Assembly: GCA_965243025.1 (NCBI GenBank)
Contig: CBDETY010000003.1
Span: forward strand, 3,456,001 to 3,520,000
Origin: Candidatus Latescibacterota bacterium
Lineage (GTDB): Bacteria > Latescibacterota > UBA2968 > UBA8231
DNA length: 64,000 bases
Reading direction: 5' to 3'
This document shows positions 44,918 through 60,551 of the stretch, one piece after another. Made by a program: the position numbers and the translations under genes. The notes under the pieces were generated by a model. That model worked only from the letters and a program-made list of their open reading frames with translations, was not told the origin of the DNA and did no database searches. Numbering within the stretch: position 1 is the first letter of the stretch; every line of letters starts with the position of its first letter.

Positions 44918-45060
44918 TCGGTACCCCTCCAGAATGGGCGATCCTAACTTCGAGAATGGACCTCTGCTGTCAACGCGCTGTGCGGTTATCGTCCAGACCT
45001 TGACACACGCCGAAACCTGGTCAATGCTTGGTCCCAAGTCTCAACAGATGGAGGAATCTC

Positions 45061-45912
45061 GTGATTGTAGGATCGGCACCATACCAGTACGAGCGGGTCG
45101 AAGGCTGGGGACGCGGGCCTGATGGGCGTGTCATGGGGGTGAACTCGGGAATAGCCGTTGATTCAGCGGACCGGGTTTACGCAGTCGACCGCGAACCCGA
45201 ACCGGCCATCGTGGTGTTCGACCGGGATGGTCGCTACCTGACCTCGTGGGGTGAGGACCTGTTTTCCCTCCCACACGAAATCTGGATCTCTTCCGACGAT
45301 CGCCTTTTCATACCGGATTGCCGCGATCACAGTGTGCGAATCTGCACAACCGAGGGGGAGGTGCTTCAAACAATTGGAACCCCGGGCAACTGCGGCGCAC
45401 CGGGCGAGCCATTCAACATGCCTACAAGGGCGGTTCAGGCTCCTTCTGGAGACATTTTCGTAAGCGACGGCTACGGACAGCAGTTCGTTCACTGCTTCAG
45501 CTCTGACGGAACCTGGAAGCACTCCTGGGGCGGAAAGGGGTCCCTGCCGGGCCAATTTACGCTGCCACACAATATTTTCGTCACCCCCGACCAAAGAGTC
45601 GCCGTTGCCGATCGCGAACCAAACAACCGCCTCCAGTTCTTTGACAGTGGCGGCGGTTTTCTGGAAAAATGGCCGGGGCGCCTGTTTCCCTGTGGGCTTT
45701 TTATCGATTCCGATGGTACCGTTTTCGTCGCCGAGGGCGGCGGCGTGAGCATCTTCAGTCTAGAGGGGGGGCTGATTTCGCAGTTTGTCGTAACCGGGGG
45801 ACCGGCCGATCGACTTCATGGGGCTCATTCCCTGTGGGTTGATCGTCATGGAGACCTCTATGTTGGTGAAGTCGGCGTGGAAAACCTGGTCTTCAAATTC
45901 ACCCGCGTTTGA
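45061..45912 (+). CDS. NHL repeat protein (peptidyl-alpha-hydroxyglycine lyase-like)
   Basis: GGAGG then GTG; FSLPHEI, FNMPT, VSDGYG, GQFTLPHNI, VADRE. Confidence 0.85.
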   Translation: MIVGSAPYQYERVEGWGRGPDGRVMGVNSGIAVDSADRVYAVDREPEPAIVVFDRDGRYLTSWGEDLFSLPHEIWISSDDRLFIPDCRDHSVRICTTEGEVLQTIGTPGNCGAPGEPFNMPTRAVQAPSGDIFVSDGYGQQFVHCFSSDGTWKHSWGGKGSLPGQFTLPHNIFVTPDQRVAVADREPNNRLQFFDSGGGFLEKWPGRLFPCGLFIDSDGTVFVAEGGGVSIFSLEGGLISQFVVTGGPADRLHGAHSLWVDRHGDLYVGEVGVENLVFKFTRV

Positions 45913-45991
45913 TACCTGCGCATTCATACCGTATACCGGAAACAGAACCGACCGCACAAGGCATGGATCTTCCAGCTGCTCATCCGGACAC

Positions 45992-46030
45992 AAAAAAGCC
46001 CGGCGATCAAAAAAAAGACCGCCGGGCTTT
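45992..46030. terminator. rho-independent terminator, probably bidirectional
   Basis: AAAAAAGCCCGGCG...CGCCGGGCTTT between convergent genes; T6 tail on the minus strand. Confidence 0.8.
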
Positions 46031-46051
46031 CTATTCAGCCTGAGCTATTCC

Positions 46052-47383
46052 CTACTGGGTGTACTGAGTTACATTGGCGATGCCGCCAGGTTGGGTCAGC
46101 GCGTAAACTATCAGATTGACCCCGAACTGCAGGCCGCGCTCTCTCGCATCGGCGTTGGGGTCCCCCCAATACCAACTGATGTTCAGGTCACTGAAAACCA
46201 CCGCGACCCGACCTCGAAGTTCAAGCATTTCAAGGTCGAATACGTTTCCCCCTGGAGCCCCACCCATCGGGGGACCGTCCTCAAAATCGAAAAAGCTGTA
46301 GTAGAGATCATGGTCCTTCGGAATTTTCTGCCATTTGCTGCCATCGCTTCCGAGTACCACGGGGTCCGACATCAGCGCCTTGAATTGCCGGTCGAAAAGA
46401 GTCCCCTGAACGCCGGCATTTTTATTGTCAAGACCGGTTTCCGGATCGGCCTGACGGATCTCTTCTGCAAAAAGAAAACCGCCATTCTTCAGGTACTCAC
46501 CGAGGTTTTCCTTCTCCGTGTTGGTAAATTGAAATACCGCATTGTTACCGGTCAGATAGATAAATGGCGCTTTCATCACGGTGGGATCACTGAGCCGTAA
46601 AGTAGTACCTTCGATACGTGCATTCACACGCGAGTGGTCGCGTATATAACGCATCAATTCCTCTACGGCGGTCGGAAAGCGATCAACACTTTTGTCGGCC
46701 AGATCGTAGTCGACCACCGTCATGTTGAAAAAGCCTTTGATGTTTCGCTTGTTGTCCGGATCCTGAATGAGGATCGCTTGGAAACGACCAAAGTCGAGAT
46801 CTCCGACGTTCAGCAGTTCCTGCTTCAGGCTCATGGCTTCCTGTACTGGTGCTGCAGTTTCGGTCAACTCGATCATTTCGACCTGGTCGAAGGCGAGTTC
46901 CTCTGCTTTTGCTCCACTGAAAGCCCCCAGAACCTGAGTGCCGGGCAAAACCGCGCCAAGGAGATCGCTTCCCACTGAGCTGACATCGACGATTGCGGAA
47001 ATATCTTCAGGTGCTTGCATTGCCTGGGAGAGCAACATCTCCATCTGGACTTCAGATATTTCCGGCTGTTTCGCGAGATCGAAGTTTTTCTGCAAAATGG
47101 GAGGGGGAGCCTGGAAGTAGATCAACTTTTCTTCCTCTTCTACCACCGTAAGCTGCATGTAGTAGGCGACTCCCCAAGCTCCGGCGTGGACAATCACGGA
47201 TAGAATCAGGGCGGCATTCAGGCCCAGGCGGCGTCCCGTCGTAGCTTTCCATAGCGCCATCAGGAGTACTGCAAGGGCGGCCGCGCCCACGGCGAACGCG
47301 AACCATTTCGAGATGATGAGCAGCAGGTGAATCAGTACTGCTACCCCGAAAATCGCGTATAGCTGTTTTTTTCGTTCGTCCAA
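46052..47383 (-). CDS. DUF4159 domain protein with N-terminal TonB-like membrane anchor
   Basis: TM with SVIVH (SxxxH); C-terminal PFIYLTG, ENLGEYLKNGGFLFAE, QFGVNLIVYALT. Confidence 0.75.
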   Translation of the reverse strand: MDERKKQLYAIFGVAVLIHLLLIISKWFAFAVGAAALAVLLMALWKATTGRRLGLNAALILSVIVHAGAWGVAYYMQLTVVEEEEKLIYFQAPPPILQKNFDLAKQPEISEVQMEMLLSQAMQAPEDISAIVDVSSVGSDLLGAVLPGTQVLGAFSGAKAEELAFDQVEMIELTETAAPVQEAMSLKQELLNVGDLDFGRFQAILIQDPDNKRNIKGFFNMTVVDYDLADKSVDRFPTAVEELMRYIRDHSRVNARIEGTTLRLSDPTVMKAPFIYLTGNNAVFQFTNTEKENLGEYLKNGGFLFAEEIRQADPETGLDNKNAGVQGTLFDRQFKALMSDPVVLGSDGSKWQKIPKDHDLYYSFFDFEDGPPMGGAPGGNVFDLEMLELRGRVAVVFSDLNISWYWGDPNADARERGLQFGVNLIVYALTQPGGIANVTQYTQ

Positions 47384-47436
47384 AGTAATTCAGTCCTCAG
47401 CTCGGTGTTTGGCTCCGGTTTGCTCTACTCAGACGA

Positions 47437-47856
47437 CTATTTCCCGCGTCCTCTCTGCGGCTCCGTCGCAATCACTTGATCGACAATGCCTACCTGTCTG
47501 GCAATATCCATGATCTGAACGATCTGGCCGTGGGTAGCCCGTTCGTCACCTTGGATAATGATCAAGGTGGTGTTATCCAGCAGAGTCCTCTTGGCCTGCA
47601 GTTCCTCTTTGAGATTGGCAAATGTAACGCTCTTGTGGTTGAGCTTCATATTGCCATCCTGATCGACTACAATGAAGAGGTTTTCCTTCTCGGGAGCCTG
47701 AGACTCCTCTGCCTCCGGCAACTTGATGTCCAGACCAGGGGTGATTGCGAACACCGCCGTTACCATGAAGAAGATGAGAAGCTGGAACACCACATCGATC
47801 ATCGGTGTGAGGTCGGGCTTCTCGTCCTGACTTCCACGCTTTTGGACGGCTGCCAT
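47437..47856 (-). CDS. exbD: ExbD/TolR family biopolymer transport protein
   Basis: LTPMIDVVFQLLIFFMV; IQGDERATHGQIVQIMD. Confidence 0.92.
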   Translation of the reverse strand: MAAVQKRGSQDEKPDLTPMIDVVFQLLIFFMVTAVFAITPGLDIKLPEAEESQAPEKENLFIVVDQDGNMKLNHKSVTFANLKEELQAKRTLLDNTTLIIIQGDERATHGQIVQIMDIARQVGIVDQVIATEPQRGRGK

Positions 47857-47902
47857 CTTTCCTTGTCCCTCCCTACCTGATTATGAATGCAAGAATGCCC
47901 GC

Positions 47903-48556
47903 TCAGGCAGCTTGCGAGGACTGCCAACGACGAAGCAACGCGTCGACGAAGCCGTGTCCGTAAGCTTCGAACTGGACGTACCTGCTGTCGGCACGAGTGC
48001 TGAAGTAGGTGTAAATGGCGATCGAGGGCACGGCAATTACCAAGCCGGTAACCGTGGTGATCAGCGCTTCTGATATACCCGCTGCAACGATGGTCGGCTC
48101 ACCGAGACCCTTTTCCGCAATTCCCTCAAATGCCCGGATCATTCCGTTCACCGTTCCAAGCAATCCCAGCAGCACCACGGAGTTTGCAACGAACTGAATA
48201 ACCGACAAGTAGCGCTCCAGATAGCCAAGGGCGGCGCGCTCGACGGTACCGTTCATTTCCGCTCGCATTTCTTCCATTGTGCGCTGTTCTCTCGAAAGGT
48301 GCTCGAAGCGCTCGATACCTTCCAGGAAAACCTCACCTTCCAGCTTGCCCACCTCGCCGCAGTGCTCCCGCAACTGATCGAAACTAGTCCCCGAATCAAT
48401 TCGGGTATTCATGTCGTTGGTTGCCTCAGCCAGCTCTTCTTCGCTACGCATCCGCGAATACGTCCAAATCCTTTCAAGGAAGAACCCCACAGCCATAATC
48501 GACCAAAGGCCCAGCGGATACATGAAAGGTCCACCATCGCGAAAGAAATCTAACAT
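47903..48556 (-). CDS. exbB: MotA/TolQ/ExbB proton channel protein
   Basis: GGPFMYPL, LGLLGTVNGMIRAF, GISEALITTVTGLVIAVP. Confidence 0.9.
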   Translation of the reverse strand: MLDFFRDGGPFMYPLGLWSIMAVGFFLERIWTYSRMRSEEELAEATNDMNTRIDSGTSFDQLREHCGEVGKLEGEVFLEGIERFEHLSREQRTMEEMRAEMNGTVERAALGYLERYLSVIQFVANSVVLLGLLGTVNGMIRAFEGIAEKGLGEPTIVAAGISEALITTVTGLVIAVPSIAIYTYFSTRADSRYVQFEAYGHGFVDALLRRWQSSQAA

Positions 48557-48595
48557 GTGCTACAATCCTCCCTGTTAGAGCTGCAGGCTGGAAAG

Positions 48596-51500
48596 CTATA
48601 TGACGCGAGCTTCTTCCAGAGCTTGCAGCTGCTGCTTTGAAAAATCAACTTGAGGTGAGAATCTCGCCGCTTCGCTATACTTTTCCACCACTGTTTTGAA
48701 AACGTCCGCTGCCTTTCGATAGTCTTCCTGGGCCATGTAAGCGGCACCGATGTTGACGGCCGCGTTCACGGCTTGATCGCTTTCCGGATACTTATCCAGA
48801 ACCTGCTGGAAAATCTGGATTGCCTCAACATACTGTTCCTTGTCGAACAGCTTCTCCCCTTCCGCGTAGACGTTGTAAGCGTCGATCTCCGAGAGGTGAC
48901 CGAGAAGGACTGTTGCTTTTCGACGCAACTTCTTGTCTTCGTCCTTCTTCAGACGGTCATCGGGATAAATCTCCAGAAACCTCTGGTAACTCTCGGTCGC
49001 TTTATCGTAGACTTTCTCACTGTAGTAGAAATCGCCGAGCGTGAACTGACTTTTTGGACCGTAGTAACCGTCGGGATGTTTGTCCACGATCCGTTCGAAT
49101 ATCGGCAAGGCCTCTTCCTTTCGGCCCAAATGAATCAGAGCCCACGCCTTGTTGTAGAGGGCGTCATCCACGTATTCCGATCTCGAATACCGACTCAGGA
49201 CGCGGTCGTATTTCCCCATCGCTTCTGAAAAGATCTTGTTCTTTTCCTCCCTCATCAGACCTTGGGCCAGGTTGAAAACCGCTTCTCCTGACCGGAACAG
49301 AGCTTCCGGGGCAAAGCGGGACGTTGGATAGCTCTTGGCCAGCTGATCGAATGCAGTGCTCGCTTCACGCCATTTCCCCATGCGGTAACTCGCCCAGGCA
49401 TCGTAGTAGTGAGCGTATACCGCTTTCTCATCGTCCGGATAAGTCTGGTGGTATTTCCGGAAGGCTTCCACCATCAAAGGAAGGTACTGGACGTTGCCCC
49501 CTCCTGACAGTGAGTTATAGGCCACACCAATCTGGAACTGAGCATTCCTGGCCCAGCCAATTTGAGGATAATTGTCGATGATGGTTTGGTATGTGGCGAT
49601 CGCCTGCTCGAGGTTTCCCGAGCGGAAAAAGCTGTTTGCCTGCACGAACAGCGCATTTGAAATGCTTTCGACATCGACGGCAAGATCGATGAGCTGTTGT
49701 GATGCCTGGATGCTACGATCGTATTGCTCCAATCTGAAATACGCGCTTGCCAGACGGATCAGCACACGCACCTTGTCTTCTTCGGATTGCAGCTTCTCCA
49801 GCATGTTTTCATAGGTGCGTATCGCATCTTGCGGATCTTGTTTCTCAGCCATCGAAATCAGCTGCAGTTGAGCATTGCGCGCCAGCGTCTCATCTCCTGA
49901 ATCGATGACCTTGTTCAGCAGTTCAGTGGCTTCGTCATCCTTGCCTTGAGCAGACAACGAGAGCGCCATGGAGAACTCCACCTTCAGAACCATTGTTTCC
50001 GGAAGGTCGGATTCAAGAAGCCACATGTAGTCCGCGACTGCGTTGGTGTATCGATTGGCGTAATGATAGGCAAGGCCGCGGCCATAATGTGCATCCCGTA
50101 CGACCCCGGCTTCCGGGTATTCCTCGATTACCTTCGTGTACCTTGAAATGGCGTCGACGTAGTTTTTGTTGTTCAGGTCCAACTGGGCGATCTGGTAGTG
50201 AGCGGTGGCTTCGAGATCGCGATCTCCGCTAACTCCCGCCAACAACTCGCTCAGAAGTTCTTTGCCCTGCTCCGGCCGCCCTTCTCCGATATGGATATTT
50301 GCCGCTTCGACCAACGATGCAACGTATACTTCTCGCGCTTTCCGTCCCACCCGCGAAAAAGCTGCAATAGCTTCCTCAAGTCTCCCAGCTTGTTTATAGA
50401 GGATCCCCAAGCCATAATTCCCGTCTGCCGCATGTTTTGTGTCACCGTAGTTTTCAGCGATCGTCTCATAGGCTGAAATTGCTTCCTCAAAGCGCTGTTG
50501 CTCGGTGTTTACCCGCCCGATTCGCAACAGACATAGCGGTGCCTGATTGGATCTCGGAAAACTCTCGACGACCTCTGTATAAAGGCTCTGAGCCTCTTCA
50601 TAATCCCCCAGTTTTTCCGACGACCATCCTGCACTGTAGAGCGCCTGAGCGCGAAGCGAAGTTTCGCTGTCGGGGTAATTCTGCGTCACGAGCCGGTATT
50701 CGGTGCGAGCCTCCTCGTAACTCCCAGCGAAGTAACGCGCTTCTCCCTTCTGATACTGGGCGTTGGCTGGATAAGGGGTATCGCCATAAAGGGTGATCAC
50801 CTGGTTGTAAGTGTTCCAGGCATCGTCAAAGCGCTCCCATTCCATATAGTTATCGCCAAGGCGCATCTGCACTTTTGCCTTGTAGAACCGTTCCTCCGCT
50901 GTTTCCTGAGCGGAAATCAACTCTCTATAGGCTTCCTCGAATTCTCCCTGTTTTCGGTAGATTTCAGCAACCCGCAAGGATGACGTTTCAAACAACTGCC
51001 TGTAATTTTCAAAATCGACATTCTTGCCTTCGCGAAAAGACCCACGGAGCAATTCGTACATTCGGTCGTACAAATCACGCACCTCTCGATACGCTTCAAT
51101 CGCTTCGTTCGGCCGATCCATCTCGTCAAATGCCTGTGCTTTCAAGTATGTCGCTGAAGCAATTACAGGACTTAGCGGATAGCGGTCGAGTACAGCCTGA
51201 GCTTCGTCCACCGAGCGCTGGTACTCAGCTTTTTCATAGTAACAGGAAGCGATGCGAAACTGAGAGTCCGGGGCATACCGGTCCTCGGGATACCTCTCCA
51301 GCATGCTTGTCAGGGTAGTGATGGACTGATCATAGGACTCGAGGTTGAACTCGCTCCAACCGGCGTAGAACAGAGACTCTCCAGCCAATTTCGAGTCGGG
51401 AAACATCTCGACATAGCGCTTGTACTCATCTGCGGCCTTGTCGAATTCTTTCTGGAGGAAACGAGTTTCCGCAACACGGAATTGGACGAGCTGTCTGAAA

Positions 51501-51847
51501 TCTTCTGCTACTCCTGTCTGCTCGGTAACCTGGTGGAAGGCGTCAACAGCCTTTTCATGTGAGCCGCTTCGCATGTGAGCGTTACCGAGCTGATACCAGG
51601 CGGCTGCCAGTATCGGCAACTCCAGTTCATCTCCGAAACTTACAACTACACTGTCGGTTCGAACCGCCCGGCTGTTGAACTTGACGATCTTGCTGTACTC
51701 GATTATCGCGCCTTCGTACTCGCCGAGGGCATATAGTGATTGGCCCGCGTCGAATTTTGTTTTCAGGCTCTGAGGAACGGGTAGGAAGAGGCTAGTTCCC
51801 ACTCCGAGCCCCAAGACGATCAGTCCCAACCAAACCGTCATGACCAA
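48596..51847 (-). CDS. very long TPR protein (BamD/CpoB-like repeats) with N-terminal membrane anchor
   Basis: Many A-x-Y/F-x2-G...YP repeats across 1083 aa; N-terminal hydrophobic segment. Confidence 0.9.
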   Translation of the reverse strand: MVMTVWLGLIVLGLGVGTSLFLPVPQSLKTKFDAGQSLYALGEYEGAIIEYSKIVKFNSRAVRTDSVVVSFGDELELPILAAAWYQLGNAHMRSGSHEKAVDAFHQVTEQTGVAEDFRQLVQFRVAETRFLQKEFDKAADEYKRYVEMFPDSKLAGESLFYAGWSEFNLESYDQSITTLTSMLERYPEDRYAPDSQFRIASCYYEKAEYQRSVDEAQAVLDRYPLSPVIASATYLKAQAFDEMDRPNEAIEAYREVRDLYDRMYELLRGSFREGKNVDFENYRQLFETSSLRVAEIYRKQGEFEEAYRELISAQETAEERFYKAKVQMRLGDNYMEWERFDDAWNTYNQVITLYGDTPYPANAQYQKGEARYFAGSYEEARTEYRLVTQNYPDSETSLRAQALYSAGWSSEKLGDYEEAQSLYTEVVESFPRSNQAPLCLLRIGRVNTEQQRFEEAISAYETIAENYGDTKHAADGNYGLGILYKQAGRLEEAIAAFSRVGRKAREVYVASLVEAANIHIGEGRPEQGKELLSELLAGVSGDRDLEATAHYQIAQLDLNNKNYVDAISRYTKVIEEYPEAGVVRDAHYGRGLAYHYANRYTNAVADYMWLLESDLPETMVLKVEFSMALSLSAQGKDDEATELLNKVIDSGDETLARNAQLQLISMAEKQDPQDAIRTYENMLEKLQSEEDKVRVLIRLASAYFRLEQYDRSIQASQQLIDLAVDVESISNALFVQANSFFRSGNLEQAIATYQTIIDNYPQIGWARNAQFQIGVAYNSLSGGGNVQYLPLMVEAFRKYHQTYPDDEKAVYAHYYDAWASYRMGKWREASTAFDQLAKSYPTSRFAPEALFRSGEAVFNLAQGLMREEKNKIFSEAMGKYDRVLSRYSRSEYVDDALYNKAWALIHLGRKEEALPIFERIVDKHPDGYYGPKSQFTLGDFYYSEKVYDKATESYQRFLEIYPDDRLKKDEDKKLRRKATVLLGHLSEIDAYNVYAEGEKLFDKEQYVEAIQIFQQVLDKYPESDQAVNAAVNIGAAYMAQEDYRKAADVFKTVVEKYSEAARFSPQVDFSKQQLQALEEARVI

Positions 51848-51893
51848 AACTCCTTGCCGGTTGTTCTACGCACAGAAGAAATGGGGTTAGGGG

Positions 51894-52829
51894 TTACAGC
51901 TTGTAAGAAATGGAGAAGCGGTGCGACCCATTGGTTTCGGTCAGGTCGAGCGGGATATGGTAGCCGTAGTCGAACAGCATTTTGTTCCACTGGTACCCGA
52001 GACCGGCATTGAGATCCCCACTGACATCCTCCTCAAGAACCCGGCTACCTCCGGCTCGCAACATCAGCCCTTCAACCAGGACGGTTTCGCCGCCGAGCAC
52101 CAGGCTCCTCTCAGTTTCCCCACCCAGATCGCGCATGACCCACTGGACCGAAACCATTGAGGTTTCCGCCACTGGGGCGGCTATCCCGACGTGCACATCC
52201 ATAGGCAACTTTCCGGCATCAGGATCGCCCGGAACGGATGTCTTTGCCACGTTCGGTTGGTTCAGGTTCTTCAACAGCACCCCCAGATTCGCCCCCCGCA
52301 ACGGCGACTTCCACAGCACGCCGATATCGACGCCCGGGGCTCCATTGCTGGTGTTCGACAGCGGATCAGCTCCCATAACCGGGTCGTCTGGAATGTCCCC
52401 GACGCTCCAGAACAGGTACTTCGCGGTCAAACCCAGGGACAAATTGCGGTTCAGTTGGTAAGAAAGGCCGAAGAATGCCCCGTTCTCACTCATCAGATCG
52501 GAGCCAATACGTTCATAGCCCAGACCCAGAGCCAGCTTTTCCCCCATAGGCTGGACAAAACTGGAGATGTGCTGCCCCAGATTGTCGCCGTCAATCCCGC
52601 CGAACAGCAGAGACACGTTGGTGTAGGCCAACTGACGGCTCTCGACCTGGGTCAGCCCCGCGGGGTTGGCGAATACCGCGTCGCCGTTGTCCGCTACCGC
52701 CGCAAAAGCGTTGCCCAGCGATGCCGAGCGTGCTCCCGCGCCGATATTCTGGATGTTCACAACTGCGTGCGCTGTGGTCGCCAAGGCCGTTATGGCGCTG
52801 GCGATTGCGAAAAAACGCCCTGCCTTCAT
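51894..52829 (-). CDS. PorV/PorQ-like (T9SS-associated, FadL-fold) outer-membrane beta-barrel
   Basis: Signal peptide; GAGARSASLGNAFAAVAD..AVFANPAGL; C-terminal FDYGY...GSHRFSISYKL. Confidence 0.78.
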   Translation of the reverse strand: MKAGRFFAIASAITALATTAHAVVNIQNIGAGARSASLGNAFAAVADNGDAVFANPAGLTQVESRQLAYTNVSLLFGGIDGDNLGQHISSFVQPMGEKLALGLGYERIGSDLMSENGAFFGLSYQLNRNLSLGLTAKYLFWSVGDIPDDPVMGADPLSNTSNGAPGVDIGVLWKSPLRGANLGVLLKNLNQPNVAKTSVPGDPDAGKLPMDVHVGIAAPVAETSMVSVQWVMRDLGGETERSLVLGGETVLVEGLMLRAGGSRVLEEDVSGDLNAGLGYQWNKMLFDYGYHIPLDLTETNGSHRFSISYKL

Positions 52830-52859
52830 GAGCTCGATCCTCCTTGTGGTATTTCCCTG

Positions 52860-53639
52860 TTACTTGCTCGCAGTCTCGATTACAGGCTCGGCATCGCCGT
52901 ACCTGCGCCCGATGTCTCGTTCAAAACCGTAGGTGATATCGACCGCCTCGACCGGTTCATTCCGGTAGTCGAACCTCAGAACGCAATCGTGAACGATGAC
53001 ATTTATCTCGCGAACATCCGGGTGAAGTGCAGGAAAGATTACGAATCCTTCCTTCTCCTGTCCGCTGAAGATCTCTTCGTTCTTGAACATGGTGCGGTTC
53101 AGCAGATCCATCCGCTCCTGGTAACGGTTGTACTCATTACCGCGATACCCGATAGCATAGGCTCGGTAGTAGGTGTCCATCTGCTGTTTCCCGAGACTCC
53201 AGTACTCCCGGTTGTTCGATGCGACGAGCTGAACCCTTGCGGGATCAATCTTCACCTTCGGATAGGCGTAATTCTTGACGCTGAGGCGAAACACCGTAAA
53301 CCGGGTTCGCTCCTGCTCCCCTTCCCAGAACTTGGTATTCCCGTAGGTGTAGGGATTGGTGGACTTCGGTCCCGAATTCGAATGGGAAGCAAACTGCCGG
53401 TTGAGTTCCTCGTCGGTCATGGGGCGAAGCCTGACCTCGAGGCGATCCTGCGTGAAGGTGATACTGCCGTCGTCAGCGACACTCATCGCGCTCTGCTGGC
53501 TTTCGGCAGGTCGCAAGGGTGTGGCGTAGTGATAGTATCCACATGCCACCAAACCCACCGAAACGAGAGCAATTGCTGCGGAGTTAAGGAAGCGGGTTTT
53601 TTGCCGTGCTTTCGGTCCCAAATCCGGTCTCGCGAACAT
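52860..53639 (-). CDS. lipoprotein of unknown function
   Basis: Lipobox LVAC after a hydrophobic stretch; beta-sandwich-like FRLSVKN and EGFVIFP. Confidence 0.65.
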   Translation of the reverse strand: MFARPDLGPKARQKTRFLNSAAIALVSVGLVACGYYHYATPLRPAESQQSAMSVADDGSITFTQDRLEVRLRPMTDEELNRQFASHSNSGPKSTNPYTYGNTKFWEGEQERTRFTVFRLSVKNYAYPKVKIDPARVQLVASNNREYWSLGKQQMDTYYRAYAIGYRGNEYNRYQERMDLLNRTMFKNEEIFSGQEKEGFVIFPALHPDVREINVIVHDCVLRFDYRNEPVEAVDITYGFERDIGRRYGDAEPVIETASK

Positions 53640-53766
53640 GATCGAACGGACTCCCTAGTTGAGATCCTGTGCCTGCCCGGAGCCGATTTCCACGGTGCCC
53701 CGGGTTGTCCGAGATAAATACGAAAGAACCTTCAGCCGATGCAACTCCGCCGTAAGATAGTTCATT

Positions 53767-54687
53767 TCACGGGCGGATGGAAGCTTTTATTTGACCCCAC
53801 GACTTATCCACAATTGCGGTTTCTGCGGCCCCGCCGAGACCAACCAACTCAAGGTCGCTGAACCTCTCGGACAGCCGGAAGGCATTGTGCCCGCCACTCA
53901 GAGACCACTTGGCGTCGTAGAGTTCGGAGTGGGTGTCGAAATCGTTGAACTCCGCGTTGAATCCGAGCACCTCCCCTTCGCGTAAGTCGTGTTCCACACT
54001 GAGGAAAGAAGCTCCGACATCGATCCTGTCAAATGGGGTCAGCGCCAGTTCATAGGCGACGACCCCGGGGCTTGTCACAACCACCGCGGCCTTGGTGAAC
54101 TCCCCATCCGGTTCTGAATACCACCCCGCAGCCGAGAAATTGACGAAAAAATCGCCATCCGGGGGCGGGGGGCCGGACAGGATGAAGTGGTTTGCCTCAG
54201 TGCCGTTCAGACGCAACTGCTCCTCCTCGCTCAACTCCGAAAAATCCGCGAATTGACCGCCCGAATGATCGGCATCCAGGAAAATCTCCAGATCGTCGTC
54301 CTGGAATATCAGAGCCGGAGGGGTCCCCTCGGGACGATCAACCTGATGCACATCATCCACGACCACTGCACTTATATATAATTGATTAGAAGCGTCGTTC
54401 CAACCTACGCAGAGTGTGGTTCGGAAATCTGAGGGGTCCACCACAGCCCCGCTGACAAGATCTGTAAGCTGTTCTGTTGACACGCAAAAGTCGGAATCCA
54501 CAATTCCCCAATCCGACAGGTCGCCGTCGACCACAGGTATGAGATGGTCGGAAAAGTGAAATGCCCGCATGCTGACTCCGGGAGGTTGGTGAGCAATCGC
54601 CACCGAAACGGCTTCAGGTGTGCAGACCGCAACCGTAACCAAGGCAAGAAAACTCATCGCCGGCTTGCGGGTTTCAGCATCGACCAA
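53767..54687 (-). CDS. exported CBM9/DOMON-like protein with C-terminal SWGQIK motif
   Basis: VDGDLSDW, VGWND..NQLYI..VVDD, DDLEIFLDADHSGG; ends TAIVDKSWGQIKASIRP; paralog of 3186..4064; alternative ATG at 54657. Confidence 0.72.
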   Translation of the reverse strand: MVDAETRKPAMSFLALVTVAVCTPEAVSVAIAHQPPGVSMRAFHFSDHLIPVVDGDLSDWGIVDSDFCVSTEQLTDLVSGAVVDPSDFRTTLCVGWNDASNQLYISAVVVDDVHQVDRPEGTPPALIFQDDDLEIFLDADHSGGQFADFSELSEEEQLRLNGTEANHFILSGPPPPDGDFFVNFSAAGWYSEPDGEFTKAAVVVTSPGVVAYELALTPFDRIDVGASFLSVEHDLREGEVLGFNAEFNDFDTHSELYDAKWSLSGGHNAFRLSERFSDLELVGLGGAAETAIVDKSWGQIKASIRP

Positions 54688-54692
54688 GGACT

Positions 54693-55556
54693 CTATTCTT
54701 TCTCCTCCGTCCCGGAAACACCCTCATCCTGCATCTCGCCGCTCTCGTCGTGGAAGCGAATCAGCTTGATGTCGTGCAGTCCGATTCCGAAATCCCCGGT
54801 GCCGGACCTGCCGGAAAAGGCCGAGCCCACTCGCTTCTCGTAAATGCGGTTGGTTTCTCCGGCCAATCGCACGGTGCTGGCATCGACCGTGCCCTGGGTG
54901 GTGCGCCCGGTGCGGAATGTGACGGTCACGGTCCGGGATTCGGTTCCGGCTGCGGCCTTCGCGAAATCGAGCCGGCTTATCCTTGCCATCTCCTTTGAGC
55001 GCATTTTCAAACCCTGGAAATACTCGAACCGCCGCTTTCCGCGAAATCGGAGGTTGGAGACTTCGAAGCGTTCACCCGCCTCGTTGATGACCGTGGCCTT
55101 GAGTTCGACCTGAGGCCGGGCGGGGTCGGAGTGATGGAACAGTACGTCGCTGACCTCCGACATCAGGATCAGAAAAGGGCCGAGTTCCGTGACCCCACCA
55201 AAACGCTGCATCACGGAACCCCCGCCGAAACTGTCCTGATGAGGGGAGCTTCCGCTGCCGCCGGAAAAAACGGTGGCGTTGACCACTTCACCGGTTCGCA
55301 GGGTCACGGCAACCTGTTGCTCTTCGTCGTTCTTGTCGCCTTGCATTGTCAGCCGGTCGAGATCCTGCATTTTGAGGATGCGACGATGGTTGCCTACGTA
55401 GATCTCTATATCGTCGCCGCCCTGGTATGTGAGCCTGGAAACTTCGTGGCGGTTTCCGGCTCGATCCACGACGGTGGCTACGATGTCGGACTGTTGCGCT
55501 TCGACTGAACAAACAGCCGCCCCCGAGATTGCGATCAGTGCGGAAAGGATCTTCAT
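54693..55556 (-). CDS. exported protein with two tandem homologous domains
   Basis: Signal peptide; ATVVDRAGNRHEVSRL and ATVINEAGERFEVSNL repeats. Confidence 0.7.
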   Translation of the reverse strand: MKILSALIAISGAAVCSVEAQQSDIVATVVDRAGNRHEVSRLTYQGGDDIEIYVGNHRRILKMQDLDRLTMQGDKNDEEQQVAVTLRTGEVVNATVFSGGSGSSPHQDSFGGGSVMQRFGGVTELGPFLILMSEVSDVLFHHSDPARPQVELKATVINEAGERFEVSNLRFRGKRRFEYFQGLKMRSKEMARISRLDFAKAAAGTESRTVTVTFRTGRTTQGTVDASTVRLAGETNRIYEKRVGSAFSGRSGTGDFGIGLHDIKLIRFHDESGEMQDEGVSGTEEKE

Positions 55557-55621
55557 GGTTTATTCTCTGGCAAGTTGCGCTGATTCTGTTTCAGCATCCC
55601 CGTCATGACAATCGGTGCGGG

Positions 55622-56296
55622 CTACTCGATTCCGCCCTCCTCCTCGAGCTGCTGCGACTCGGTTTCGATGTTTATGTGAGTTATTCCGCCGTAGGTTACC
55701 TCTACCGGCCGGAACTCGTCGAGTCCGCTCGGTGAATTTTCGATACGCACCTTGTACGACCTTCCCGCCGGGACTATGAAATAACGAATCTCGGAGGAGG
55801 TCATTCCCTTGCCCAGAACAGTACGCATGTTGTAGTCCATGATGAGGAAGGGGATCTGTCGCCCCAAGTCCTCACCTCCGGTGAACCTGACAGAGAATCG
55901 CCCGAGGTTGACGGGGACATACTTCTCCTCTCCCAATCCGATTTCGACGTTCCGAATCTCCACATTGTCGTCGATGTCGGTATTGACGACGACCGTGTAG
56001 AGTCCCGGCGGAATATCGCACATCAACCGGAATTCCTGAGCACCCATCTCGTAATAAGCCGGGGAACTCGCCGAAAGACGGGGTGTATCGGAATACACCT
56101 CTTCATCGGTGTCCTGATCGATGACGTAGAAATTCAACTCGTTGATACCGCCAGCATCCAGAATAAGTCTACCCATCCCCTCCGGAATCGGTGCAGGACC
56201 ACCTCCCCCTCCGGAAGTAGTCGCACACCCGGTTGCGAGCAGGCAGCAGACGAGCAGTTGTAAAGCTATACGGTGAATTTCTCTTGATTTTGCCAC
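55622..56296 (-). CDS. lipoprotein of unknown function
   Basis: AGGAG upstream; lipobox ATGC followed by a Gly/Pro linker; PPGLYTV and PAGRSYKV beta-domain motifs. Confidence 0.68.
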   Translation of the reverse strand: MAKSREIHRIALQLLVCCLLATGCATTSGGGGGPAPIPEGMGRLILDAGGINELNFYVIDQDTDEEVYSDTPRLSASSPAYYEMGAQEFRLMCDIPPGLYTVVVNTDIDDNVEIRNVEIGLGEEKYVPVNLGRFSVRFTGGEDLGRQIPFLIMDYNMRTVLGKGMTSSEIRYFIVPAGRSYKVRIENSPSGLDEFRPVEVTYGGITHINIETESQQLEEEGGIE

Positions 56297-56737
56297 GAGA
56301 CCTTGCTCCTTCCATCTGGCTTGAAATCCGGCAGACTACCTGAGAACTTGACGAGCCGATGTATCACTGTCAACGCTGGCCTGGTCCGACCGCTTCAGAA
56401 GGATCTTCCTGACGGCGAACATGCCCTCCCGTGGGGACCGTCGGCAGGGTTGGACGACAATGCGGGTCTTCAACGTCGTCGAAGAGAGGGACGATGCTGT
56501 TGTGGTCAGATTTCGACCTCGAGCCCACCAGTTGGAGAGTTGAGGGAATGATGGACCGTCTGTTCCGGGGGGCCATACCGAGTCCCCTGTTGGGTGTGTC
56601 TTGGCGCCGGTGTTGGAGCCTCACCCTCCTACCCGACCATGTACGGATACGAAGAGGGCTGTTTCCCGCGCAAAGCCCTCGGTGTCTGCTGCCGGAAACC
56701 CCGGATCACCCTGTCGAGCACCGTCCCACGCCTGTCT

Positions 56738-56775
56738 GAGGTTCTGCACCTATTTAGAGGTTCTGCACCTATTTA
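56738..56775. repeat. perfect 19-bp tandem duplication GAGGTTCTGCACCTATTTA x2
   Basis: Copies at 56738-56756 and 56757-56775; overlaps the stop codon of 56773..57255. Confidence 0.9.
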
Positions 56776-57255
56776 ATTGAATAGGTCTTTGACCTTCCCC
56801 CAAGTGGTGACGTCGACTTCTGTACCGATCGGTGGAGTTGGGGAGAGTCGGTGAATCGTCGCCTCGAAATCATCTCCCGAGACGGTTGTTGTTCCGCCGT
56901 TCTCCTTTACCAGAAGGAGGCTGCCGCGGTGCCCGGACCGAAACCAGTCTTCTGCCAACTCTGAAACGGACTGGTCTTGCTGCAGGAAATCATCGACGGA
57001 GAATATCTCGAAACCGAGCCGACCCAGCCCCGGAGAGCGGATATCTCCCGTATCCACTACCCCGAAAACCCGGATCTCCTCGATCTCGGCGGTCGCCCGT
57101 TCCAGATCCTGTGCCCTGCGTAACTGTTCATGTGAGTCGGGATCGAACAAGAGGAATAACTGGACGAATCCCGGATTTTGGGCTTCGGCGCCTGGGATGG
57201 CCAAGCCCAAGGCAAGGGCGACCATGACAGCTTTGTGAAAACAGGTGCGTCTCAT
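56773..57255 (-). CDS. small exported protein with C-terminal TWGKVK motif
   Basis: Signal peptide ending AEA; ends GTEVDVTTWGKVKDLFN. Confidence 0.68.
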   Translation of the reverse strand: MRRTCFHKAVMVALALGLAIPGAEAQNPGFVQLFLLFDPDSHEQLRRAQDLERATAEIEEIRVFGVVDTGDIRSPGLGRLGFEIFSVDDFLQQDQSVSELAEDWFRSGHRGSLLLVKENGGTTTVSGDDFEATIHRLSPTPPIGTEVDVTTWGKVKDLFN

Positions 57256-58337
57256 TCAGCCCTGATCGTGAACGCCGGCTCGATTTCTCCCTGACCCTCC
57301 AGGATATTGACCTGTGACAGGTGGTCGTTGAGCACCTGTCCGACCTGGATCACCCCCACTCGCCTTGGCACGGCATATCCGAGGACCGCGTCGGTTTGTG
57401 GATCGCGAAGCTCGCGCCCCAGATCCCAGACCCCGAACTTGTCCCCGTTCCGGACCCCGTCCGCGGAGCCGACGTTAATATAAGCGCGGCCGGCATCGAT
57501 ATCTATGATTTTCGGCTCGGATACACTCAGCTCGGGGGCAGGGCGAACAACCGCTTCGACTCCCATGCCCAGTTGTTGCAGGCACTCGCCCACGGACTGC
57601 CCTACCAGGGTTTTGTGGAACTCCGGCGAACCCCATTCCGCTTCCCCCAGAAAGAAATACTCCCTGTCCATGGGAACATGTGCGGCCGGGTTGACGATAC
57701 CAGTGCGCTTGCTGTCGATCTGTCCCTCACATCGATACTCACCTGCAGGCTGGCCGTCGATGGCATTGTAGAAGAAGAGCTTTATCTCCGTAATTCCCTG
57801 ATAGCTCCTGTATCCACCCAGGGGAACAGTGGCGCGAAACCTTTTCATGCTGATGTCTCCGATTTCGCCGAGGACAACGACATCGGCTTCCAGCTGTCGT
57901 CCCAGATGTACGGCCTTGCCCGACTCGATTTTCCCGAGCCGCTCTTTTTTTCCGAGCCGCACGAACCCCGAATCCGGTGGAATGATTCGATAGGCATTGT
58001 AACGTCCCAGGGTATCGGCCAGTCCGCGGGCGAGCTGCCCGTAAATGTCCCAAGGCCCCTTGTATTTCGACAGATCGCGAAACGGTAGAATCAGGAGAAC
58101 CTTCTTGAGGGCATCTATGCTGTCTTTCTCAGTGACTGAGGATTTCACCGTCTCTTCGGCGGGTGCCGGCCGCGGGGAAGCGGCCGGTTCGGCCGTCGCT
58201 GATTCGGCGGCTTCCTGGTCTTGGGAAACGGTTCCACCGATCGATGCCAGATGAGAGCATCCCGTGCCGATGGCAATCAGCAAAGCCATGCCGGCAAAAG
58301 AGAGGGAACACCGCAGTTTCTGTTTCGAAATCACCAT
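57252..58337 (-). CDS. lipoprotein with CsgG/TolB-N-like domain and FlgT C-terminal-like domain
   Basis: Lipobox GTGC; VLILPFRD, LGRQLEADVVVLGEI, AYINVGSADGVRNGDKF. Confidence 0.68.
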   Translation of the reverse strand: MVISKQKLRCSLSFAGMALLIAIGTGCSHLASIGGTVSQDQEAAESATAEPAASPRPAPAEETVKSSVTEKDSIDALKKVLLILPFRDLSKYKGPWDIYGQLARGLADTLGRYNAYRIIPPDSGFVRLGKKERLGKIESGKAVHLGRQLEADVVVLGEIGDISMKRFRATVPLGGYRSYQGITEIKLFFYNAIDGQPAGEYRCEGQIDSKRTGIVNPAAHVPMDREYFFLGEAEWGSPEFHKTLVGQSVGECLQQLGMGVEAVVRPAPELSVSEPKIIDIDAGRAYINVGSADGVRNGDKFGVWDLGRELRDPQTDAVLGYAVPRRVGVIQVGQVLNDHLSQVNILEGQGEIEPAFTIRAE

Positions 58338-58371: not shown

Positions 58372-59649
58372 TCAGCGACTCGGACTCAATCGCGGCAGCA
58401 CGTAGGGTCCTTTCGGGACTACGGCTACACGAGGCTTGCTGCCAGATTCGCGAAGAGCTCCGTCTATCCCCGCCTCCACCGATGGAACTACCTCGACCAT
58501 CGGAAAAGAGGCCTCGAAATCGCGGGCGATCTTTCGAGAATACAGTTTCACGCGTGCCTTGGCGAGCACCTTGCACAACTCCTGAAGCTGCCATTGGTCC
58601 ACGACGAAGAAATCGGGTGACTCCAATTTGCAGACGAACTCCTCGACCCTGGTTGTCTGCAGCAACAATTCGCTGAATTCCGGACTTCCCAGCCCTTCGT
58701 CGCAACTCGCCGCAATTACGATGGTTCCACCCTCGCGCAGGATCGGCAGCACCGCAGTCATGCCCTTGACAGCCTGGTAAAAGGTCAGGTCGAGGGGAAA
58801 TCCGGCGCTGGTCGTGACCACGACGTCTACAGCCTCGTCGACGGTAGCCAGGGCTGCCGCTTCGACGAAGGCCACGCCCTCGGCGTGGGCATCCTCCAGA
58901 TCGCCGCAGAATATGCCGGTGATCTGGCGCTGTTCATTCATCGCCACGTTGAGAGTGAAGTCGACCCCGACAGTTCTTGCCACTTCCAGCGCCTGCTCGT
59001 GAAACGGGTTGCCTTCGATGATCCCTTCGGCGGATCCGGGGTGTCCCATCAAGTCCGGCCCGTGCAGCACCCTTACTGTGTCGACTCCCATCAACCCGGG
59101 GCAGATCGCCTTGCGCCCTCCCGAGTATCCGGCCATCAGGTGAGGTTCGATCAAAGATGTCGCGATCTTCAGATCGGCTTCCAGGTAAAGGCGGTCAACC
59201 CAGATCGGAGCTCCTGCCGAGGTTACTCCGAGGTATGCAAGGCTGCCCCGGTCCCTGGCCCGGTGGTTCTCGATGCGGTATTCCTGCGCGATCTCCGCTC
59301 CGACGAGCTCAACCAGCTCCTCCCCCTCGTTGGGGCGGTGCAGGCCGGTGGCGATAAGGATGGTAATGGCATCGCGCCGGATTCCGGCGTTTTCCAGAGT
59401 GGCCAGAACGGGTGGGAGGATCGTGGAGTTGGGAACAGGCCTGGTGATGTCGGAGATGACGACACACGCGTCCGAGCGGCCCCGGGCAAGATCGAGGAGC
59501 GGCGGCGTTCCGGAAGGCGCCCGCAGGGATTCGCAGAGCCGCTCTTCGATGCGGTCCAAACCGGGAATTGCCGCCATCGACAGGATCTGCGCGTCGTCCG
59601 GCACCTCAGCTTCGATACCGTTGCGGCCGTAGTCGAGAGCGACTTTCAC
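58372..59649 (-). CDS. larA: nickel-pincer-dependent lactate racemase LarA family protein
   Basis: ISDITRPVP, ATGLHR, IEPHLMAGYSGGRKAICPG, DLTFYQAVKG. Confidence 0.85.
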   Translation of the reverse strand: MKVALDYGRNGIEAEVPDDAQILSMAAIPGLDRIEERLCESLRAPSGTPPLLDLARGRSDACVVISDITRPVPNSTILPPVLATLENAGIRRDAITILIATGLHRPNEGEELVELVGAEIAQEYRIENHRARDRGSLAYLGVTSAGAPIWVDRLYLEADLKIATSLIEPHLMAGYSGGRKAICPGLMGVDTVRVLHGPDLMGHPGSAEGIIEGNPFHEQALEVARTVGVDFTLNVAMNEQRQITGIFCGDLEDAHAEGVAFVEAAALATVDEAVDVVVTTSAGFPLDLTFYQAVKGMTAVLPILREGGTIVIAASCDEGLGSPEFSELLLQTTRVEEFVCKLESPDFFVVDQWQLQELCKVLAKARVKLYSRKIARDFEASFPMVEVVPSVEAGIDGALRESGSKPRVAVVPKGPYVLPRLSPSR

Positions 59650-60551
59650 GATTCGGCATCTCCGGTGCGTTGCAGGATCCTGGTTCTGAGGTAGTCGGCA
59701 AACACCGGACCGTTGTGGGGATCGGCGAGGGCAAAATCGGCAAAGGCCCGGTAGTAGGTGGTCGGACTGCCGATGTCGTACCGCCTTTCGTCCGGAAGCA
59801 GGCGCACGCACTGCACGCCTTTGCCCTCGTCGATCAGTATCTGGATGGCATCAGTCAACCAGAGTTCCCCTCCATGGCCGGTTTCGATTTTCTCTATCGC
59901 CGCGAACACGCGGCGGTCGAAGATGTAGCGGGCCGCGACCGCGAGATGGCTGGGAGCGTTTTCGGGGCGAGGCTTTTCGACGATCTCGGAAATCTCGAAA
60001 CAGTCGCCGTCGCCGGTTCCCAGGCACGGCCTCACAATTCCATAGCGCTGGACCTCTTCCGCCGGCACCTCCCAGACGGCGATAGTCGCCGCCATCTCGT
60101 TGCGCAGGTGGGCGGCGATCATGCGCCCGACAACTCCCGGTTTATGGGGGGAGTGGATGATCGTATCGCCGAATCCGACCAGGAAGGGCTCATCGCCGAC
60201 AAACCTGGCGCCAAGTCGAATCGCATCGGCGTTGCCCAGAGGCCGCCGCTGCCGGACGTAGAAGAACTCCACTCCTTCCTTCTCGTAGTCGAGCTGGGCG
60301 ACCGATTCTCCTTTTTCCCGGAGCAGACTGTCGAGTTCGGGATCGTCGTCGAAATGGTCTTCTATCGACCGCTTCTTGCGGCCGGTAACGAAGAGGAGCT
60401 TGTCGACTCCTTCCTCAACAAGCTCCTCGACAACATGCTGCACCACTGGCTTGGTGCCGACCGGAAGCATCTCCTTGGGCTGCGATTTGGTTGCCGGCAG
60501 CAGCCGGGTACCCCTTCCGGCAACCGGCAAAACCGCTTTTGAAATAGTCAC
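59646..60551 (-). CDS. galU: UTP--glucose-1-phosphate uridylyltransferase
   Basis: KAVLPVAGRGTRLLPATKSQPKEMLP, IEDHFD, VEKP, GGELWLTDAI. Confidence 0.9.
   Translation of the reverse strand: MTISKAVLPVAGRGTRLLPATKSQPKEMLPVGTKPVVQHVVEELVEEGVDKLLFVTGRKKRSIEDHFDDDPELDSLLREKGESVAQLDYEKEGVEFFYVRQRRPLGNADAIRLGARFVGDEPFLVGFGDTIIHSPHKPGVVGRMIAAHLRNEMAATIAVWEVPAEEVQRYGIVRPCLGTGDGDCFEISEIVEKPRPENAPSHLAVAARYIFDRRVFAAIEKIETGHGGELWLTDAIQILIDEGKGVQCVRLLPDERRYDIGSPTTYYRAFADFALADPHNGPVFADYLRTRILQRTGDAES

Follow-up and report, generated by a model that had tools for sequence, protein, structure and literature searches.

A conserved ExbB/ExbD gene cluster of a Latescibacterota bacterium with a candidate TonB-like transducer that ends in a DUF4159 head

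What does an ExbB/ExbD motor work on when no TonB-dependent receptor is encoded beside it? This question is raised by a cluster of eleven co-oriented open reading frames (ORFs; g1 to g11, Table 1), which run on the minus strand from 58337 down to 46052 in a 64,000-nucleotide stretch of the genome of an uncultured marine Candidatus Latescibacterota bacterium (contig CBDETY010000003.1, positions 3,456,001 to 3,520,000), here called the window. Our preferred reading, to which we give a probability of about 0.6, is that the cluster encodes an envelope-spanning machine driven by the proton motive force, of the same class as the Ton, Tol and Agl-Glt systems, with a TonB-like arm that carries a DUF4159 head; its mechanism can be proposed in outline. 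This reading is based on the position of g11, its histidine-bearing anchor, its conserved box and its linker, together with the synteny of the cluster, a TonB_C-like stretch in relatives of g6, the lineage of the motor and published precedent. Proteins of the outer membrane or the cell surface are the probable object of the motor's work, which would hold, expose, move or release them; import through a plugged TonB-dependent receptor is probably not its purpose.

The g11 gene is located directly downstream of the ExbD gene, with a gap of 53 bp. The only canonical TonB of this genome is encoded in a cluster that also contains a tetratricopeptide repeat (TPR) protein, in the order TPR-ExbB-ExbD-ExbD-TonB, and its gene is placed in the same way as g11 with respect to the motor genes. 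The layout of the g11 product comprises three predicted helices, a conserved box, a linker and the DUF4159 head. DUF4159 (PF13709) was the sole Pfam match, covering residues 223-429 with 97.2 bits against a cut-off of 25.9 (E = 1.2e-27), and no TonB_C, TonB_2 or vWA family was found in Pfam at E <=0.1. An uncharacterised homologue of the head is present in the Protein Data Bank (PDB 4i66); it was detected with the profile of alignment A1, which contains 13 sequences, among them two paralogues of 27-30% identity (E = 5e-14), and with Foldseek (E = 6.8e-8), where it was the sole clear structural match for what is a poor model.

The third predicted helix of g11 holds an S-x3-H motif, the same SxxxH that is found in the canonical TonB, and another histidine is located in the middle of the first helix. 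Both helices bear a histidine in the orthologues, apart from a sub-clade with Glu or Leu in the third. In the box, F90, P95, F101 and L103 are invariant across all the orthologues and both paralogues of A1. The linker, of ~150 residues, is included in a region (residues 78-261) with a predicted local distance difference test score (pLDDT) below 50 in a model built from a shallow, 13-row alignment. Crude regular expressions, applied to the DUF4159 family and to a control set of 922 ORFs with an N-terminal hydrophobic stretch, some of them spurious ORFs, found a membrane-helix histidine in 72 of 81 non-redundant family members versus 276 of the 922 controls, and S/TxxxH in 34 of the 81 versus 37 of the 922. 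The genome contains 15 DUF4159 loci, at least 11 of which encode proteins of ~400 aa with one N-terminal histidine-bearing helix, a Lys/Pro/Arg-rich segment and the same box. Because of its position, its anchor histidine, its box and its linker, g11 looks from its sequence like an equivalent of TonB, with the DUF4159 head in place of TonB_C. The first-pass annotation of this DNA had regarded the DUF4159 protein as an anchor; position, histidine and box point instead to the head of a TonB-like transducer, which would not be a passive anchor.

The motor genes belong to the ExbB (g9; PF01618, E = 5e-25) and ExbD (g10; PF02472, E = 2.5e-29) families, with the Asp of g10 within the membrane helix. 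Among the more specific models, g9 scored 82 bits with TolQ versus 52 with ExbB, and g10 scored 69 bits with TolR versus 51 with ExbD, all of them under the cut-offs (TolQ 221, TolR 127). An ExbB tree was built with 30 sequences, comprising four from this genome, every fifth orthologue-type and all the paralogue-type sequences among 55 found. The window ExbB was placed within the orthologue clade with support of 99/99, and the canonical Ton ExbB, which has 32% identity to it, was on a separate, long branch outside both DUF4159-linked ExbB clades, being the single canonical reference. The grouping with ordinary TonB uptake systems that had been considered earlier was not observed with this one reference, from which the window ExbB stands apart. 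A sub-lineage (L039, L072-L075 and L089; loci are cited by number where they need to be told apart) has kept the barrel as well as the TPR protein and the DUF4159 transducer. Its ExbB and ExbD, with 24-31% identity to those of the window, branch deeply and apart from the others, as would be expected if the motor had been swapped. A third ExbB of the genome, at 6.01 Mb, was also considered, and it lies outside any Tol-Pal operon.

Comparison with other genomes showed that the conserved unit is the promoter-distal part of the cluster, g5 to g11, and that g1 to g4 are variable. Eight loci from the same family were compared, six of which extend beyond the TPR gene. The TPR-ExbB-ExbD-g11 arrangement was found in seven of the eight, and the eighth (L039) contains a very divergent ExbB and no ExbD match at the filter used. 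In the six longer loci, g7 was always present, g5 was syntenic in five and g6 adjacent in four, and g1 (at >=30% identity), g3 and g4 were each seen in two. A wider scan with one genome per species recovered 80 loci, of which 55 were orthologous (>=48% identity to g11) and 25 were paralog-type. The TPR, ExbB and ExbD genes were found upstream in the same order in 44 of the 55; ten of the other 11 end at a contig break within 1.3 kb upstream, and the remaining one is a short, secreted, head-only form. Orthologues of g11 at >=60% identity were present in 19/24 genomes of the same family and in 0/16 genomes of the other families of the class, and a match at E <=1e-40 was obtained in 53 of 121 genomes of the phylum sample, representing 7 of 14 families. 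The record titles of these relatives name Candidatus Latescibacterota or Gemmatimonadota metagenome-assembled genomes (MAGs). The first-pass annotation had allowed for a cluster that is not conserved and had proposed synteny in relatives as a check; conservation was found, and is wide for g5 to g11, and the expected synteny did not extend widely to g1 to g4.

The genome itself contains at least four further paralogous versions of the cluster, as detected by BLAST of the eleven proteins against all its ORFs. A second full set, here named cluster B, is located at 6.17-6.19 Mb and encodes a CBM9-like tail protein, large outer-membrane proteins, a g6-like protein, a FlgD_ig-tailed discoidin protein, a PorV-like barrel, a TPR protein, ExbB, two ExbD and a g6-like protein; partial sets were found near 6.11 Mb, 0.09 Mb and 0.15 Mb. 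Of the 25 paralog-type loci of the wider scan (27-36% identity to g11), 18 contain a g8-like TPR gene, 18 a g6-like gene, and 12 both ExbB and ExbD; some are from MAGs labelled Zhuqueibacterota, Neomarinimicrobiota, Handelsmanbacteria, Aminicenantes and 'Cytophagia'. Their usual order begins with a PorV-like barrel, followed by an outer-membrane protein of ~900-1000 aa for which no Pfam family was found, and then TPR, ExbB, ExbD, one or two DUF4159 genes, a g6-like gene and a g1-like gene. In paralogous clusters, the TPR gene comes after genes for proteins of ~900-1175 aa whose C-termini are barrel-like (L011:3700-6648, L011:10573-13650, L015:10054-16037, L016:4697-8224 and L097:1148-3877), with no Pfam family except for a weak SlpA_C match in L097 (E = 8e-9). 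The window cluster lacks such a component.

None of the 29 Plug-domain loci and neither of the two TonB_C loci of the genome map to the window, so the first-pass annotation was right about the lack of a TonB-dependent receptor and of a TonB C-terminal domain, and its view of a conserved envelope system with a motor and no such receptor is supported. It had also reported that TolB and Pal are missing. TolB_N was not detected in the genome, nor in five genomes of the same family, with a search that did match control genomes; as for Pal, no OmpA-type domain was found among the eleven cluster proteins, and Pal was not searched for by family.

The g6 lipoprotein family recurs beside DUF4159 genes and offers a link to the Ton system. 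The g6 product has no Pfam match, and its AlphaFold2 (AF2) model (pLDDT 87.9) is a beta-sandwich for which Foldseek returned nothing at E <=0.001. A wide structure comparison gave weak matches to YcdA, YjhA, MPT63 and generic beta-sandwich lipoproteins (Z <=8.4), so that the relatives are generic only, and no functional lead emerged from the fold. Eight paralogues are present in the genome, and in paralog-type loci an overlap between the g6-like gene and the DUF4159 stop codon is frequent. Long forms of ~400 aa are encoded right after DUF4159 genes (L014:10593-11849, L015:737-2032 and eight loci of other genomes). In nine of ten tested, a weak TonB_C/TonB_2-like stretch was found at about residues 310-380 (E from 3e-5 to 0.07, two reaching the cut-off), with consistent placement. 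A TonB-type head would thus reside on the lipoprotein, while the membrane anchor bears DUF4159. A co-fold of g11 residues 76-443 with g6 residues 34-259 gave scores of 0.00 and 0.16 against a mark of 0.32, and was informative neither way.

The g7 barrel belongs, by sequence comparison, to the PorV/PorQ/PorP superfamily, below threshold. It matched NF033709 (PorV/PorQ) over nearly its full length with 72.8 bits versus a cut-off of 90, PorP_SprF (PF11751) with 22.3 bits, exactly at the cut-off of 22.3, and TIGR03519 with 35.7 bits versus 90.55. The earlier designation of g7 as a PorV/PorQ-like barrel is therefore adequate for the superfamily and falls short of the curated cut-off. The g8 product gave TPR family matches with E down to 6e-87, and three paralogues of 1081-1133 aa are encoded in the genome.

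The g5 protein has a CBM9_1 match (E = 7.5e-8) and ~95 CBM9-like paralogues of about 300 aa in the genome. Both g5 and g2 end in a 15-residue tail, which is conserved in 15/15 g5/g2 orthologues and is retained in the same-genus orthologue of g2, a protein with no Pfam or NCBIfam match. The motif W-[GAS]-x-[IVLM]-K was found at the C-terminus of 150 ORFs genome-wide versus 12 in a control position, ~95 of the 150 being the CBM9-like paralogues, with ...TAVExxSWGRIKASL as the typical form. No sorting-signal model of Pfam or NCBIfam matches the tail, which may be an undescribed sorting or anchoring tag. Tail ORFs were not enriched within 10 kb of DUF4159 loci (6 observed versus 6.5 expected), PorV-family loci (5 versus 3.8) or giant TPR loci (2 versus 1.7), and the tail was rejected as a cargo signal for this machine.

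Among the variable genes, g1 gave a weak FlgT_C match in Pfam (E = 0.0032), and it is CsgG-like solely by language-model features (0.94-0.95 to CsgG clusters); the clusters that it resembles carry TolB_N or LpoB annotations in 11-43% of their members. Genes similar to g1 come after g6-like genes in four distant loci. The single g1 paralogue of the genome (C3:1344428-1345459; L018/L019) is located 22 kb from a gene for a 1675-aa TPR protein (C3:1367537-1372564; L018/L019), which carries one of the only two TonB_C matches of the genome, and both may be part of another Glt-like set. No Pfam or NCBIfam family was matched by g3, which has homologues of 33-51% identity in L036, L081 and L088. The two halves of g4 align with each other (E = 2e-11), and no credible Pfam match was obtained for it.

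The coordinates of the eleven genes are given in Table 1. Intergenic gaps are 65 bp or less, except for those of g5/g6 (127 bp) and g2/g3 (476 bp). A hairpin of 15-16 bp followed by a U-run begins 16 nt past the g11 stop codon, with a folding energy of -31.8 kcal/mol (z = -5.3) that was equalled by none of 200 shuffled sequences, which agrees with the earlier description of eleven co-oriented genes ending at a strong terminator. RNA-library contigs of close relatives (runs X17-X20) covered 13-19 of 30 cluster bins at 90-99% identity; DNA carry-over is possible and uncovered bins are uninformative, and these contigs are at most a weak hint of transcription. The cluster has a GC content of 0.55 versus 0.654 for the genome, within the lowest 0.7% of 12.3-kb windows, and the orthologous cluster is below its flanks in GC content in four of four relatives. 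A LarA-like gene (58372-59811) on the same strand ends 34 bp upstream of g1, and two beta-propeller proteins are encoded beyond the terminator (43031-45912), a Kelch protein of 668 aa on the minus strand and an NHL protein of 294 aa on the plus strand.

Table 1. Genes and terminator of the cluster, with positions in the window.
Feature	Position	Strand	Description
g1	57252-58337	minus	361 aa, probable lipoprotein, CsgG/LpoB/TolB_N-like, accessory
g2	56773-57255	minus	160 aa secreted protein, TWGKVK tail, accessory
g3	55622-56296	minus	224 aa lipoprotein (lipobox), accessory
g4	54693-55556	minus	287 aa secreted protein, internal duplication, accessory
g5	53767-54687	minus	306 aa secreted CBM9-like protein, C-terminal SWGQIK tail
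g6	52860-53639	minus	259 aa beta-sandwich lipoprotein (lipobox); family recurs beside DUF4159 genes
g7	51894-52829	minus	311 aa outer-membrane barrel, PorV/PorQ/PorP superfamily, below threshold
g8	48596-51847	minus	1083-aa TPR protein, N-terminal hydrophobic anchor; proposed periplasmic scaffold
g9	47903-48556	minus	ExbB/TolQ-type stator subunit
g10	47437-47856	minus	ExbD/TolR-type stator subunit, Asp in membrane helix
g11	46052-47383	minus	443 aa TonB-like transducer candidate, three membrane helices, DUF4159 head
Intrinsic terminator	45990-46032	minus	Hairpin then U-run, closes operon

From these components we infer the following contacts. ExbB and ExbD would form the inner-membrane stator, and g11 would be the force transducer, with one of its histidine-bearing helices docking on the stator as TonB and TolA do. 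The box and the ~150-residue linker would cross the periplasm, and the DUF4159 head would replace the TonB C-terminal domain and engage the outer-membrane side. The membrane-anchored 1083-aa TPR protein could serve as a periplasmic scaffold, comparable to GltD, while the barrel g7 and the lipoproteins g6, g3 and g1, presumably located at the outer membrane, would make up an outer-membrane module. As the likely passenger or ligand-binding partner we propose g5, the secreted CBM9-like protein with the C-terminal tail.

Several observations weigh against this proposal. The full-length AF2 model of g11 (mean pLDDT 49.5, 13-row alignment) is too poor to class its fold. The linker contains conserved blocks and a single PPP motif and, unlike that of TonB, is not proline-rich. 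The histidine of the third helix is replaced by Glu or Leu in 3 of the 13 A1 sequences, and in 11 orthologues of a larger comparison, with that of the first helix kept; seven members of one paralogous subfamily (L111, L113-L117 and L119) have no membrane-helix histidine, and the crude expressions and spurious control ORFs behind the family-wide histidine counts reduce their weight. DUF4159 loci exceed motors in the genome, 15 versus four ExbB genes, and the separation of the window ExbB from the Ton system depends on a single long-branched reference. The idea of g5 as a passenger is also weakened, because tail ORFs are not enriched near the marker loci.

[quoted passage not shown] Its basis in the barrel superfamily holds, since g7 matches both the PorV/PorQ and the PorP/SprF models over its full length, and cargo with T9SS-type C-terminal domains (CTDs) adjoins paralogous clusters: a discoidin protein with a FlgD_ig or CHU_C CTD is encoded just upstream of the barrel in cluster B and L118, and CTD-bearing GHL10 (glycoside-hydrolase-like) and Golvesin_C-domain proteins flank L097. 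The genome also encodes SprA (598 bits summed), four PorV-family frames over the cut-off and 99 Por_Secre_tail frames, and SprA was over the cut-off in five of five other cluster-bearing genomes, with GldL in none of the five. GldL and GldM gave no match to TIGR03513, TIGR03517 or PF12081 in the genome, but these models were over the cut-off in no genome reached, including 0/41 of one further phylum, so this absence is unproven. The ORF lists around SprA and around the best GldK-like match gave no evident gldKLMN-like operon. The GldK-like matches of the genome are weak FGE-sulfatase matches, one of which (C3:6193176-6194135) is inside cluster B. What did not hold of the T9SS-like interpretation is the link to this particular locus: the barrel is at or below the cut-offs, ~3.1 Mb separate SprA from the cluster, the window holds none of the 99 CTD frames, no CTD of the Por_Secre_tail type was matched in g1 to g6, the tails of g2 and g5 are not CTDs, and at least four paralogous clusters per genome do not fit a single core motor. 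A related proposal is that ExbBD/DUF4159-transducer/giant-TPR/PorV-like-barrel clusters provide energy coupling for T9SS-type surface proteins in Latescibacterota-like and allied phyla, where SprA, PorV and many CTD proteins are encoded and no GldLM motor is recognisable, each cluster serving its own neighbouring cargo; this is improbable on the present evidence. If true, it would give type IX secretion, attachment or surface-protein movement a second power source, of a TonB-like kind, and account for the energy supply of T9SS-type cargo outside Bacteroidota. No publication joining type IX secretion with Latescibacter was found in the literature.

Envelope maintenance of the Tol-Pal kind, with a TolQR-like motor and a TolA-like arm that mobilise outer-membrane lipoproteins as cells grow or divide and a CpoB-like TPR protein, would be in line with the higher scores of g9 and g10 on the TolQ and TolR models, with the three lipoproteins of the cluster, with the TolB_N or LpoB annotations around g1, and with the lack of TolB_N matches, which indicates that the classical system may be missing in this genome and its five relatives. 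Nevertheless, it is very unlikely, given that the Tol scores fall well short of the equivalog cut-offs (221 and 127 bits), that the cluster contains neither an OmpA nor a Pal-type peptidoglycan-binding domain, that several paralogous copies occur per genome, and that the orthologue is missing from 5/24 genomes of the same family and from 7/14 sampled families of the phylum, which is unexpected for a housekeeping function. Highly improbable, too, is a Ton-like uptake of polymers, in which the CBM9-like protein would capture a glycan and the motor would open a non-canonical barrel, as has been proposed for cellodextrins in Fibrobacter. The absence from the cluster of a Plug domain and of a receptor with a TonB box, the small size of the 311-aa barrel, and the canonical TonB system and 29 Plug loci that the genome already holds all argue against uptake, even though g5 is CBM9-like and conserved in synteny and glycoside-hydrolase-like cargo flanks L097. 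In Fibrobacter succinogenes, the FSU_2396-2403 proteins (OmpA-TPR-TPR-ExbB-ExbD-ExbD-TonB), whose likeness to the cluster is one of gene content, are described in PMC6851124 as more abundant on cellulose, which also favours uptake.

The preferred reading, that of a motor and a DUF4159-headed transducer acting on outer-membrane or surface proteins, would have consequences for a large protein family. Among envelope machines built from a motor and a transducer, the cluster is a real and conserved member that has yet to be characterised. In bacteria with two membranes, the known routes by which inner-membrane energy reaches the outer envelope are Ton, Tol, Mot, Agl-Glt and GldLM, and DUF4159-headed transducers, if the reading is true, would be another output in this toolkit. 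The candidate DUF4159 transducer family, which recurs together with a giant TPR protein, a PorV-like barrel and lipoproteins of its own, comprises 889 representative clusters at 50% identity, and the reading would provide the first functional context for DUF4159, a name that was found in the literature only in the Pfam database paper. The carriers are uncultured lineages from sponges and sediments whose surface proteins form very large sets, and the machine may bear on how their cell surface is built.

Among known systems, the T9SS shares with the cluster a barrel of the PorV/PorQ/PorP superfamily, CTD cargo in the case of the paralogous clusters and, by implication, a proton-driven motor of the 5:2 type; it differs in that the barrel here falls short of the curated cut-offs, the SprA gene lies elsewhere, the motor is ExbBD and not of the GldLM type, and no CTD is present in the cluster. 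The Ton system has in common an ExbB/ExbD-family stator, a transducer gene directly downstream and the His/SxxxH anchor, whereas g11 has no TonB_C, no Plug or receptor is encoded in the window, and the window ExbB stands apart from the Ton ExbB of its own genome.

No printed description of a DUF4159-headed machine was found, and analogues with a vWA head are in print. In the account of Williams-Jones et al. 2025 (PMC12204202), transducers with an SHLS-type anchor carry a vWA head, are of unknown function and are encoded beside TPR-tolQ-tolR-tolR genes; 'DUF4159' is absent from the main text of that paper. As described there, these transducers resemble the present one in having a histidine-bearing helix, a disordered linker, a head other than TonB_C, and TPR and TolQ/TolR-type neighbours. 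The differences are that the head here is DUF4159 (PF13709), with no vWA match at E <=0.1, though the g11 model is poor and a kinship at the level of the fold may exist, and that the unit contains one ExbD, a PorV-like barrel, lipoproteins and a CBM9-like protein. The lineages also differ, being Latescibacterota/Gemmatimonadota here and the Planctomycetes-Verrucomicrobia-Chlamydiae (PVC) group or Proteobacteria in the account of PMC12204202.

We know of no PorV-family barrel in the Agl-Glt system, with which the cluster can also be compared. Closest to the cluster in architecture among published systems is Agl-Glt, which according to PMC3169522 and PMC11761067 combines a TolQR-type motor, the TonB-like proteins GltG and GltJ, outer-membrane barrels with a lipoprotein, and a surface adhesin. 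In PMC11761067, GltD is a TPR pillar of ~1200 aa around which an unstructured segment of GltG wraps, and a core complex of motor, TPR proteins and transducer, aglRQS-gltDEGC, is also described, with unknown function, from bacteria that do not glide, among them a Fibrobacter. The transducers GltG and GltJ terminate in TonB-CTD-like domains, while g11 has no TonB-CTD. The likeness to Agl-Glt (and Nfs) of Myxococcus, which is one of described architecture, would include the TolQR-type motor and, in the transducer, which is single-pass in that system, a long segment in the periplasm that lacks structure. By analogy, it would extend to a TPR pillar of ~1100-1200 aa, outer-membrane barrels, lipoproteins and a surface passenger. 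As in the published accounts of Agl-Glt, several specialised paralogous sets are found per genome.

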